Shown: positions 39,859-42,150, counted from the first letter of the stretch. The stretch is DNA of 64,000 bases from Edaphocola flava (GCF_004118155.1 NZ_SAIQ01000002.1:460487-524486), one strand, 5' to 3'. Made by a program: numbers and translations. Notes: a model not told the origin generated them from the letters alone.

Positions 39859-42150
39859 TTAGATCCTCACAATTCCATACTCTTTGTCGAATTTGGCCAG
39901 GTACTCACCTATAGAAGGAACTATTCTCTGGGTTCTGACACAGGTGTTTTTGTACGGTATACATTTAATGATCGAGTCTGCAATGCCATTGTCAAAAGTC
40001 ACCATCAATTTGATCGGAACATCCAGTTCTGCAGCTGATTTAGAGCCCAGGGTCAGGGTTTTGCCATTGGTTGTATATTCAAAATCTTCGTTTTTGACTT
40101 TAACTACACCACTGGCCTGCTGCCCAAGCGCATGCCCATCAACCACCCAGGTATATGTTGTTACCTGCAGGTTGCCATTTATTCTGGCGGTAAAGTTGGC
40201 TGTTTTTTTATCCCGTACGGTAATATAACGCCCTATCCAGTTACCTGCGGGTTTATTTACCTGCATAATCTGCGCTTTCAGGATATTGTCATCTACCATT
40301 ACCGGCAGGCGCTCCATTTTGTGTACCGTTGTACCCGCTGGTACAGCAGCGCGCATTACATGAGCAACGCTTTTCTGCGCTTGTGTTGCAATAGCAGTTA
40401 GCCTTTCCTGCATTTTATAGTTGATGTTACGGGCATCTATATAGCTGACTTCTTCCAGTTTGATGTGTTCATCAAAGAAACGGAACGGTTTGCAACTGAA
40501 GTTGCCGCTGAAGTCGATCGTATAGATATCAGATTTATAGGTTTTATACCGGATGATAAACTCATCCCTCGTTACATTGACGACTACGAAGAGGCCCAAT
40601 GCATTGTCGGATGTTCTAATAGCCGTAATGCGTCCTGTTTCGAAATACTGATCTGAAATAAACGGTATGGGCACATAATTGGCGAAGTAGGGTAATGGCA
40701 GATTACCGGTTATGCCATATGTGAGCATCAGCAGATCGAAGTGCCTCATGGAGGAGAACGGTTTGCCATTGGCCAAAGTTGCTATAGCACTACCGCACAA
40801 TACCTTCAGGTTCCGGCTCTGTTCCCAGCCCTCCAGGCGCAGGTCTGCACCTCCGAATTGCTCATTTTTAATGATGCCGTTATCCAGGTCGAAATATTGA
40901 CCGCTGCGTATCGTCAGTACACCCTCCGACTTAACCGGCCAATACTCTCTGGGCGACATATCGTAGGTGACTGTAAGGTCATCAATAAAGGCCTGATCCA
41001 GTATGGTGTCAATACCCACCAGCTGTATACTGATATCATCAATGCCATTGATCGAATCCGTTACCTGCCCGGTAATGTTTTCAATGGTAGACTCGATTAC
41101 AGATTGTGCGATCCAGAGCAGTAACGGTACGATGATCGCACCGACAATGGTTCCGGTTACACCGAATATTATACCGCCCAGCAGGGCACCAAGTACAGCA
41201 GCGCCAATCCAGCAATACCATGGGATGTCAAGATCTATATCCGGGTTGTCGGTTTCAAAGCTGACACGCAGCTCTCCGCCTACAATAGCTACCCGTATTC
41301 TTGCTGTGAACGAGCCACTGGCCTCATAACAGAAGCCACTTTTGGCGACGCGTCCGGAGAGTACGATATGATCATCTGCCGGCCTTACGGACAGATTGGT
41401 AAGCCTTACCCCATCGCGGATTTCGAAGTTGCCATTGAACGTACAACCGGAGAAAGAGCCCGCCGGAAGGCCAATGCCACTTTCTATGCGTGGACTGATG
41501 TTCCTGCAGATCCAGTCGAAATTAATGGCTACTGCCGCTCCTGCACCCTCGCGGGCGAAGGCCGAGGTGAAATCATTAATATTGCCTGCTGCACCGCCGC
41601 CGTAGGTCAGCATAATACCGATAGCATCATTATTCGTAGCCGTACTGTCATCGATTACTTTGACATCTGCTCTCGTAATAGAAGTGGTGCTGGTACTGGT
41701 TCTGTTGACCGGGATCGGGATCAGCGGAATGTTATTATTGTTCAGCTTATCCTGGATAAATGTTGCAGCAACAGTAGTAATCGCAGTCGGTATTCCTGAA
41801 ACACTAAGGGTGCAGCGGTATATTTTATTGATGAAGTCGAGAATGACTTTATCAAAATCGCTGTCTGTGCGGTCTACGTCCATGCCGACCACAACTTCCA
41901 GTGTGCCGGAGTTGCCACTGCTGAAGTTTAAATTAAATAAAAGGCGAACCGGATTAACTGCGCTGGCCGGAATGCCGGCAGGGCGGTTGAAGTCAACGGA
42001 TAATCCGAATCCGTCCAGGCTCCCGATGGTAGCGGGTAGCAGACTGCCTAATAAGCCATCATTATCGAAGGTTGCAGACAGTAAATTTTGTATGGTTAGC
42101 GTACTGATCTCGATAACCATATCGAAGCCGTGAGTTTGTGTGCCTGCCAT
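39859..42150 (-). CDS. Large uncharacterised protein (763 aa): an ~300-aa N-terminal domain, a central glycine-zipper two-helix TM hairpin, and an ~410-aa C-terminal domain; no signal peptide
   Basis: Residues ~311-349 (WYCWIGAAVLGALLGGIIFGVTGTIVGAIIVPLLLWIA) are the only hydrophobic stretch and carry repeated GxxxG/AxxxG motifs. No recognisable enzymatic motif. Last gene of a four-gene operon. Confidence 0.7.
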   Translation of the reverse strand: MAGTQTHGFDMVIEISTLTIQNLLSATFDNDGLLGSLLPATIGSLDGFGLSVDFNRPAGIPASAVNPVRLLFNLNFSSGNSGTLEVVVGMDVDRTDSDFDKVILDFINKIYRCTLSVSGIPTAITTVAATFIQDKLNNNNIPLIPIPVNRTSTSTTSITRADVKVIDDSTATNNDAIGIMLTYGGGAAGNINDFTSAFAREGAGAAVAINFDWICRNISPRIESGIGLPAGSFSGCTFNGNFEIRDGVRLTNLSVRPADDHIVLSGRVAKSGFCYEASGSFTARIRVAIVGGELRVSFETDNPDIDLDIPWYCWIGAAVLGALLGGIIFGVTGTIVGAIIVPLLLWIAQSVIESTIENITGQVTDSINGIDDISIQLVGIDTILDQAFIDDLTVTYDMSPREYWPVKSEGVLTIRSGQYFDLDNGIIKNEQFGGADLRLEGWEQSRNLKVLCGSAIATLANGKPFSSMRHFDLLMLTYGITGNLPLPYFANYVPIPFISDQYFETGRITAIRTSDNALGLFVVVNVTRDEFIIRYKTYKSDIYTIDFSGNFSCKPFRFFDEHIKLEEVSYIDARNINYKMQERLTAIATQAQKSVAHVMRAAVPAGTTVHKMERLPVMVDDNILKAQIMQVNKPAGNWIGRYITVRDKKTANFTARINGNLQVTTYTWVVDGHALGQQASGVVKVKNEDFEYTTNGKTLTLGSKSAAELDVPIKLMVTFDNGIADSIIKCIPYKNTCVRTQRIVPSIGEYLAKFDKEYGIVRI

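Follow-up and report, generated by a model that had tools for sequence, protein, structure and literature searches.

The 64,000-nucleotide (nt) stretch of Edaphocola flava DNA analysed here (NZ_SAIQ01000002.1:460487-524486; hereafter the window) contains an open reading frame (ORF) for a protein of 763 amino acids (aa) at 39859..42150, in the middle of which lies a conserved hydrophobic hairpin of glycine-zipper type. This large gene closes a tightly packed run of four genes that share a strand and encode, from upstream to downstream, a 455-aa enzyme of the phospholipase D (PLD) superfamily (43264..44631), a 239-aa YiiX/YaeF-like permuted NlpC/P60 enzyme (Peptidase_C92, E = 1.6e-9; 42526..43245), a 126-aa partner protein (42153..42533) and the 763-aa protein itself; all of these genes, and all features within them described below, are on the minus strand. 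The spacing between the four genes is 18, -8 and 2 nt, i.e., the end of the C92 gene overlaps the start of the partner gene by 8 nt, and the partner stop codon lies 2 nt before the ATG of the large gene. Two terminator-like hairpins (44802..44888, minus strand), located after the preceding DUF1801 gene (44907-45323), form the upstream boundary of this four-gene operon. The architecture of the large protein, in which a double TULIP module is followed by a glycine-zipper hairpin, an HmuY-like domain and an Ig-like domain, together with an obligatory partner of its own, is undescribed within the TULIP superfamily, and no paper describing it was found in the literature.

Family searches at the sequence level left the large protein without a name. 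Neither it nor the small partner was assigned to a family in scans of Pfam, NCBIfam, PADLOC and PHROGs, ten divergent relatives yielded no domains in a Pfam scan, and the only Pfam matches of the large protein at E ≤ 1 were TauE (0.011) and I-set (0.22), both below the cut-off. Clostridium_P47 (PF06597) was not matched in Pfam even at E ≤ 1, nor was any Gly-zipper family (SlyB/Rick_17kDa_Anti, Gly-zipper_Omp, Gly-zipper_YMGG). A profile search of PDB sequences returned noise only, with neither OrfX nor P47 among the matches, and alignment of the family profile with the P47 sequence by hhalign gave a probability of 0.1, i.e., no relationship. The fold of the protein was predicted with AlphaFold2 from a 27-sequence alignment; the model has a mean predicted local distance difference test (pLDDT) score of 79.4, with the folded domains mostly at 80-93, and its top six Foldseek matches were OrfX3, LBP and BPI (E values from 8e-11 to 6e-7). 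Structural alignment extended over 332-341 residues for OrfX2, OrfX3 and P47 and over 289 residues for BPI, and the double-TULIP domain boundaries were inferred from it. The helix-beta4-helix core of TULIP domains (bioRxiv 10.1101/2025.09.09.675085) is visible in the model as an antiparallel beta-sheet that is highly twisted and wraps around a long helix, and two such domains follow one another in the same chain. Residues 1-308 (41227..42150), which consist of beta-alpha-beta4-type units and are conserved from Met1, are hence modelled as a P47/OrfX/BPI-like double TULIP, a relationship that is one of fold only.

Beyond the hairpin, residues ~393-571 (40438..40974) are predicted to adopt the all-beta fold of HmuY, residues 573-631 (40258..40434) a helical linker that is partly of low confidence and varies in length between homologues, and residues ~637-743 (39922..40242) a C-terminal Ig-like beta-sandwich. 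Haem binding by HmuY requires a conserved pair of histidines; no histidine occurs in the invariant or at least 90% conserved columns of the whole alignment, and haem binding by the HmuY-like domain was rejected for this reason. At the N-terminus of the protein (MAGTQTHGFDMVIE...), which forms part of the fold and is conserved from residue 1, there is no hydrophobic or basic segment of the leader type, and no hydrophobic N-terminus, signal peptide or N-terminal transmembrane (TM) segment was found in the window protein or in any relative. A surface protein exported by the type IX secretion system or by Sec was rejected because a signal peptide is lacking, and a dynamin-like fission protein was rejected because the protein has no GTPase.

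The hairpin corresponds to positions 41104-41220, which translate on the minus strand exactly to WYCWIGAAVLGALLGGIIFGVTGTIVGAIIVPLLLWIAQ; the plus-strand frame of the same interval is interrupted by a stop codon. It covers residues 311-349, with 310 residues N-terminal and 414 residues C-terminal to it, and is the sole stretch of the protein that reaches a Kyte-Doolittle mean of at least 1.6 in a 19-residue window, with a peak of 2.47 compared to a runner-up of 1.41 at residue 114. The uncharged run that contains it (I309-I352) is 44 aa long, a length matched in 0.9% of whole-protein shuffles, and elsewhere in the protein such runs do not exceed 27 aa. Its composition is 18% glycine, the Kyte-Doolittle mean is above 2 over 38-44 uncharged residues, W/Y collars are found at both bases, and simple sums on the Hessa biological scale amount to between about +0.3 and -0.5 kcal/mol for each 19-residue window, within the range of real TM helices. 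With glycine zippers defined as (G,A,S)xxxGxxxG or GxxxGxxx(G,S,T) (Kim et al. 2005, as quoted in PMC12955049), the hairpin contains three instances, A317xxxG321xxxG325, A322xxxG326xxxG330 and G326xxxG330xxxT334, as well as eight small-xxx-small pairs. Composition-preserving shuffles of the 39-mer reach the zipper count in 3.3% and the small-xxx-small count in 1.2% of cases, and the periodicity thus exceeds what composition would give only modestly. An earlier note on this DNA had described a hairpin of this periodicity as the only hydrophobic element of a protein without a leader peptide, flanked by roughly 300 and 410 residues, and on all of these points its description agrees with ours.

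In the AlphaFold2 model the hairpin consists of two helices, residues 311-329 and 331-368, with a break at G330 (41161-41163), the predicted turn, and a pLDDT of 55-66; a helix-turn-helix form is supported rather than proven by this model. Arm 1 (residues 311-329, WYCWIGAAVLGALLGGIIF; 41164..41220) has an aromatic W/Y/W base and carries the invariant G321 and G325, while arm 2 (residues 331-349, VTGTIVGAIIVPLLLWIAQ; 41104..41160) carries the invariant I335 and P342, the nearly invariant G337 and, at its base, W346. Helix 2 continues into an acidic amphipathic extension of high hydrophobic moment (residues 350-368, SVIESTIENITGQVTDSIN; 41047..41103), and arm 1 is preceded by a conserved acidic strand, E-x-D-[DN]-P-D-I-D-x-D-I-P (residues 299-310; 41221..41256), in which P303 is invariant. 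At the membrane interface, the alternating acidic motif of this strand might serve as a site for divalent cations or head groups. The hairpin follows directly upon the last strand of the second TULIP domain, and the P47 sequence has a helix-turn-helix at the corresponding place, after its last sheet; given the helix-beta4-helix core of TULIP domains, the hairpin thus probably stands, in topological terms, in the place of the closing TULIP helix.

Among 27 homologues with 28-95% identity, G321, G325, I335 and P342 are invariant, and W311, Y312, C313, A322, G330 and G337 are kept in at least 90%. Judged from this alignment, the putative hairpin is conserved far more than an ordinary membrane anchor, and we regard conservation as the decisive evidence for it, stronger than the zipper statistics. 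In 103 of the longer relatives an uncharged stretch is found at the hairpin position that ranges from ~20 to 65 residues (median, 40) and usually starts with IPWYCW or WWVW; in close full-length homologues that share the C-terminal domains it measures 32-36, 40-44, 52-54 or 65 aa, and in distant relatives only 22-30 aa. Tip deletions (P0024 and P0025) and G-rich insertions (P0021 and P0034) fall exactly at the predicted turn. Since the indels cluster at the turn and both ends are fixed, the stretch would be a hairpin that returns to its side of origin; a count of separate spans would instead give opposite topologies to orthologues whose C-terminal domains are identical. Tip indels and variable length hence favour, at the level of sequence, a same-side wedge or hairpin. 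Across relatives the element is graded, from an amphipathic helix (P0115) and a 15-aa loop (P0159) through ~24 aa and up to 65 aa, and the helix of P0115 and loop of P0159 suggest that the hairpin may have evolved by elaboration of a TULIP helix.

Several further features of the hairpin region were recorded. Five relatives (P0021, P0034, P0035, P0044 and P0045) have 10-25 added residues at the hairpin tip, a near-pure G/A/V/I repeat (e.g., GGIAGALIGAGVGAIAGTVVGGVVGGAIVGG) that recalls SlyB-type glycine-zipper sequences, and P0024, P0025 and P0036 have ~10 residues fewer at the tip. Cysteines 274 (KSGFCY), 313 (WYCW, at the hairpin base), 452 and 730 are invariant or nearly so across phyla, with C313 placed exactly at the predicted membrane interface, and the conserved cysteines show no obvious disulphide pairing. 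S-acylation of Cys313 by the C92 enzyme was rejected because this residue is kept in many loci without C92. With regard to charge, the flanks of the hairpin in the 103 relatives contain, per 15 residues, 4.2 and 2.9 D/E compared to 0.6 and 0.8 K/R. According to the positive-inside rule, the cytoplasm-facing flanks of membrane segments are positive, and acidic flanks are expected to be non-cytoplasmic; the acidic flanks are the main reason to doubt that the hairpin is a simple constitutive anchor. Its hydrophobicity agrees with a zipper in a membrane-spanning helix, but the acidic flanks and the variable length do not agree with a fixed pair of TM helices.

The small partner begins with a basic, disordered or low-complexity stretch, has a predicted helical core and ends in a conserved F-x-L-P-N-G-Q...P motif. 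A homologue of it lies immediately upstream of the large gene in ~45 of the 50 loci with a large-gene relative, and these partnered loci come from Bacteroidota, Mycobacterium (kansasii complex, simiae and lacus), Meiothermus/Calidithermus, Acidobacteriota, Acidimicrobiales and Myxococcota. The pair of small and large genes is the conserved core of the system, with the large gene translationally coupled to its small partner in almost all relatives, and from this adjacency we infer an adapter role for the partner. An AlphaFold2 model of the partner built with database homologues is mostly helical and of poor quality (pLDDT 62), and Foldseek found no match at E ≤ 0.001 for this poor model.

The two enzymes encoded upstream of the pair are both of types that act on lipids. 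The PLD-superfamily protein has two intact HKD motifs (HEKYFIVD at 127 and HSKNLIID at 345) and no TM segment; the ClsB model covers its residues 3-406 (E = 1e-29) with 104 bits compared to a cut-off of 281, and the bac_cardiolipin model scores 121 bits compared to a cut-off of 290. It is therefore best described as a putative lipid-type enzyme that is nearest to the cardiolipin synthase/ClsB models yet below their cut-offs, and not as a confirmed ClsB. The C92 protein carries candidate catalytic-type His71 (SHAGLY) and Cys171 (LSCTELV) motifs. In the YiiX family a hydrophobic pocket with a bound fatty acid has been seen in a crystal (PMC3142127), and permuted NlpC/P60 enzymes are acyltransferases or phospholipases that act on phospholipids (PMC12994826). 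Genes for the PLD and C92 enzymes are linked to the pair in Bacteroidota, upstream and on the same strand, and are also linked to it, in other orders and orientations, in metagenome-assembled genomes (MAGs) of Proteobacteria and Myxococcales and in one Acidobacteriota MAG (L022, L025, L034, L037 and L041). This linkage in varied order and orientation argues for functional coupling rather than inherited synteny.

A word index yielded 26 homologues of the large protein, and a profile search of 1.84 billion cluster representatives yielded 415 relatives at E ≤ 1e-3. The same architecture is found in Bacteroidota, Mycobacterium, Meiothermus/Calidithermus, Acidobacteriota and Myxococcota, and the window locus is 98% identical to that of Edaphocola aurantiacus (NZ_VOSI01000001). 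In one metagenome contig (L061:9421-11784) the large gene is split into ORFs of 265, 135 and 270 aa, by pseudogene formation or by long-read frameshift errors, and in three further loci (L046, L048 and L053) it was matched in pieces only.

The surroundings of the pair vary from locus to locus. A census of 116 neighbouring ORFs from 29 loci gave 161 Pfam families, none of them in more than three ORFs, and revealed neither a consistent defence context nor conservation of any gene other than the four; matches to defence models were scattered over single ORFs (HamB, PifA, AbiU and MADS, one neighbour each), with AIPR, PIN/MazE and ParE genes adjoining the pair in a single locus (L009), and most neighbourhoods are metabolic or regulatory. 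PADLOC (PADLOC-DB of 2023, which does not cover newer systems) matched neither the large protein nor the partner nor the C92 enzyme, and for the PLD protein it gave generic PLD-domain matches only (MkoC and DrmC). A tblastn search of 50,697 phage and 72,556 plasmid records found no match to the family, and the base composition of the window locus shows no anomaly and no sign of recent transfer. The genes next to the operon in the window (34479-39783 and 44907-47383) encode a P-type metal ATPase, a Fur-family regulator, an extracytoplasmic function (ECF) sigma factor with an RskA-type anti-sigma factor, MsrB (SelR), a fasciclin protein, a DUF1801 protein, a fatty-acid desaturase and an AHSA1/SRPBCC protein, none of them phage- or defence-related. 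In two related loci (L004:10284-18364/L059, and L008:5977-7437 and 12074-18382), the pair adjoins a gene for a GGR-like FAD oxidoreductase, beside which lies a conserved unannotated block of genes for proteins of ~849/890, 179/143, 343, 63/66, 135 and 276/260 aa, with a polyprenyl synthase gene at its end; this block may be an isoprenoid-lipid cluster. The pair of Mycobacterium lacus (L058:5358-13975) is flanked by genes for a FadD-like AMP-binding enzyme, a short-chain fatty-acid transporter, an Acyl_transf_3+SGNH acyltransferase and a beta-lactamase-fold esterase, acyl and lipid genes of kinds that are common in mycobacteria.

We tentatively propose, with a probability of about 0.45, that the 763-aa protein is a membrane-embedded lipid-binding or lipid-handling protein of the TULIP superfamily, the hairpin of which looks more like the membrane wedge of a lipid-handling protein than like a stand-alone pore former. 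The protein lacks an export signal, and its architecture does not change between diderm, monoderm and mycolate bacteria; both observations point to the cytoplasmic side of the inner membrane, and the protein probably stays at the cytoplasmic face of this membrane. As a wedge or as a tight two-helix hairpin, the stretch would enter the inner membrane and return to the same side, with the GxxxG faces packing the two arms, and possibly also neighbouring copies, together. The hairpin would in this way keep the opening of the lipid tube at the surface of the bilayer and thus allow uptake or delivery of phospholipids, while the small partner may bind, gate or position the tube, by analogy with OrfX1-OrfX3 and TipA-TipB, and the PLD and YiiX-like enzymes, where present, may act on the lipids handled by altering their head groups or acyl chains. 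Physiologically, such a system could serve in stress-related membrane remodelling or in biological conflict.

This proposal retains part of what the earlier note had suggested, which was a cytoplasmic protein that inserts into the inner membrane according to the effector logic of abortive-infection systems or of some membrane-fission proteins. Insertion from the cytoplasm survives, as both flanks are most likely on the same, cytoplasmic side and as insertion is the only reasonable fate of 38-44 uncharged residues; the abortive-infection logic is not borne out by the PADLOC results, the phage and plasmid records or the gene context, and neither a GTPase nor any other fission-type domain was found in the large protein. 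The note had also held that a clear homology to a non-membrane family would speak against it, and here the relationship found is one of fold only, to a family that itself binds lipids or membranes. The TULIP fold of the N-terminal flank and the lipid-enzyme gene partners thus redirect the membrane idea rather than refute it.

A number of points weigh against a lipid-handling role, however. Lipid binding by the TULIP module is presumed from its modelled fold, the link between the large protein and P47 is not detectable at the sequence level by Pfam or hhalign, and AlphaFold2 confidence is low precisely in the hairpin (pLDDT 55-66). In a constitutive anchor that faces the cytoplasm, acidic flanks would run counter to the positive-inside rule, the PLD and C92 genes are missing from most loci, and the partner, as modelled, appears to resemble neither OrfX1, which is TULIP-like, nor TipB, which is C2-like. 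In addition, a bacterium with one cytoplasmic membrane has no evident need for an inner lipid tube, and the family is spread sparsely and patchily. The small and large genes behave as a self-contained mobile two-gene module in unrelated neighbourhoods, a pattern that, with the patchy distribution, suits accessory or conflict functions better than lipid homeostasis.

These latter points lead to the alternative that the protein is a triggered membrane permeabiliser, i.e., an effector of abortive-infection, suicide or toxin type, in which a latent hairpin, shielded by the TULIP groove or by the partner, would upon a signal insert and either zip into oligomeric pores or destabilise the bilayer in the manner of BPI, with the PLD and YiiX-like phospholipase as co-effectors where present and the small protein as inhibitor or trigger. 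We consider this possible but rather unlikely, and not the best-supported reading. Glycine zippers recur in the membrane-depolarising toxins Tse4, CdzC/D, TelE and LXG-T2 (PMC12955049), TULIP relatives destabilise membranes or aggregate liposomes (TipA, bioRxiv 10.1101/2025.09.09.675085; P47, PMC13030710), and PLD and permuted NlpC/P60 phospholipases are known classes of antibacterial effectors (PMC12994826); acidic flanks and the very high conservation of the hairpin are also more in keeping with a specific device for oligomerisation or insertion than with a passive anchor. The cross-phylum distribution of a two-gene module among unrelated neighbours, and the few loci beside defence or toxin-antitoxin genes (L009 and the single HamB, PifA, AbiU and MADS matches), may be read in the same direction. 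Several results speak against such an effector, however: neither the large protein nor the partner nor the C92 enzyme matches a PADLOC model, the PLD protein does so only generically, the family is absent from the 50,697 phage and 72,556 plasmid records, the neighbourhoods are mostly metabolic or regulatory, and composition at the window locus shows no anomaly. The protein also has no recognisable sensor, NTPase or nuclease, the PLD protein is nearest to cardiolipin synthases and not to Nuc-type nucleases, and a defined pore would hardly be compatible with a hairpin whose length is graded from 15 to 65 aa. A more specific version, in which the small and large genes would constitute a new kind of membrane-suicide or conflict module, with a BPI-like double TULIP driving the latent zipper hairpin from inside into the cell's own inner membrane and thereby permeabilising it, is in our judgement distinctly doubtful; the same holds for its proposed trigger, which would act through the HmuY-like and Ig-like domains or through release from the basic partner, and for the addition of the ClsB-like PLD and YiiX-like phospholipase as co-effectors in some lineages.

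Two further alternatives concern the hairpin itself. An odd number of bilayer crossings by the stretch, or export of the protein, is improbable; this would place the TULIP and C-terminal beta domains on opposite sides or both outside, as for YceB, LmeA, TipA and P47/OrfX. P47/OrfX proteins occur outside cells although they have no signal peptides, HmuY-like and Ig-like domains are a typical feature of proteins at the cell surface, the acidic flanks are those expected of non-cytoplasmic segments under the positive-inside rule, and the 22-30-aa stretches of distant relatives have the length of one TM helix. While the characterised bacterial TULIP proteins also all act outside the cytoplasm (PMC6791001; bioRxiv 10.1101/2025.09.09.675085), no relative of the window protein has a signal peptide or an N-terminal TM segment, AlphaFold2 splits the stretch into two helices at the conserved G330, and the stretches of 32-36, 40-44, 52-54 and 65 aa in close homologues would flip the topology between orthologues. 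The conserved cysteines, which lack obvious disulphide pairing, and the occurrence of an identical architecture in bacteria with very different envelopes also argue against an outside location. Moreover, we know of no way in which a folded N-domain of 310 residues could be exported without a signal. That the stretch is not membrane-associated at all but forms a buried core helix pair of a soluble protein or oligomer, as an ordinary closing helix of the second TULIP domain, appears highly improbable. The stretch is located where TULIP domains carry their second helix (bioRxiv 10.1101/2025.09.09.675085) and where P47 has a helix-turn-helix after its last sheet, and the distant relative P0115 has an ordinary amphipathic helix there; its 38-44 uncharged residues with a Kyte-Doolittle mean above 2, 18% glycine and W/Y collars, however, make it far more hydrophobic than the P47 counterpart, its Hessa-scale sums (about +0.3 to -0.5 kcal/mol) are those of real TM helices, and it would probably be too large for the lipid cavity of a ~150-residue domain.

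The family described here has no name, comprises ~400 sequence clusters from at least six phyla, including the Mycobacterium kansasii and simiae groups, and, with an obligatory small partner and, in part, two lipid enzymes, represents a compact four-gene system that is directly testable. Either outcome would add a mechanism, i.e., a route for phospholipid extraction or remodelling at the cytoplasmic leaflet or a BPI-like self-permeabilising effector, and either would provide a functional handle on the poorly understood P47/OrfX fold. Among proteins of known structure, P47/OrfX2/OrfX3 (PDB 6ekt, 9arl, 8fbd and 8bgm) are the obvious comparison; P47/OrfX3 is structurally closest to the large protein, in a likeness of fold only. 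P47/OrfX proteins are encoded in clostridial neurotoxin gene clusters and are soluble, without a hydrophobic hairpin and without HmuY-like and Ig-like domains, and the large protein differs from them in all accessory features. BPI, LBP and CETP are secreted eukaryotic double TULIPs that have no transmembrane element, place their barrels head-to-head around a central sheet and show no sequence relationship to the large protein.

The closest parallels for the gene pair are OrfX1-OrfX3, which provides a precedent for a small operonic adapter of a double TULIP (PMC13030710), and TipA-TipB of Bdellovibrio bacteriovorus, in which a double TULIP is accompanied by a small operonic adapter that binds it and opens the tube, and TipA adheres to and destabilises bilayers (bioRxiv 10.1101/2025.09.09.675085). 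In both, as in the window, a small gene adjoins the TULIP gene and is conserved with it. OrfX1, however, is TULIP-like, unlike the partner in the window, which is helical as modelled, while TipA is predation-associated and has no hydrophobic hairpin, and TipB is a C2-like beta-sandwich that is encoded downstream, whereas the window partner is encoded upstream, is basic and, as modelled, mostly helical, and no match to TipA-TipB was found in sequence or in the fold of the partner. The hairpin shares the (G/A/S)xxxGxxxG spacing with the helical hairpins of other glycine-zipper proteins (the SlyB/YfgH lipoproteins; Tse4, CdzC/D, TelE and LXG-T2; VacA), of which SlyB-type hairpins organise lipids and toxin zippers form pores (PMC12955049; bioRxiv 10.64898/2025.12.22.696046). 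These proteins are small and exported and contain little beyond the zipper, whereas the zipper in the window protein sits between large folded domains of a protein without a signal peptide.

Finally, the bacterial TULIP proteins studied to date (P47/OrfX, YceB, LmeA/DUF2993, DUF4403 and TipA) all work outside the cytoplasm; a signal-less double TULIP plugged into the inner membrane by a zipper hairpin would, if our reading is true, be a different design and the nearest bacterial analogue of the extended synaptotagmins. Extended synaptotagmins and tricalbins are SMP-domain TULIP proteins that are anchored by a hydrophobic hairpin (PMC10023780), and the likeness lies in a lipid tube held on the cytosolic face by a hairpin, with no domains on the far side and with beta-sandwich domains following. 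The extended synaptotagmins are eukaryotic, have their hairpin N-terminal to a single SMP domain and use C2 domains to tether a second membrane, whereas in the window protein the hairpin follows a double TULIP and there is no known second membrane; they are best regarded as a conceptual analogue of the window protein.

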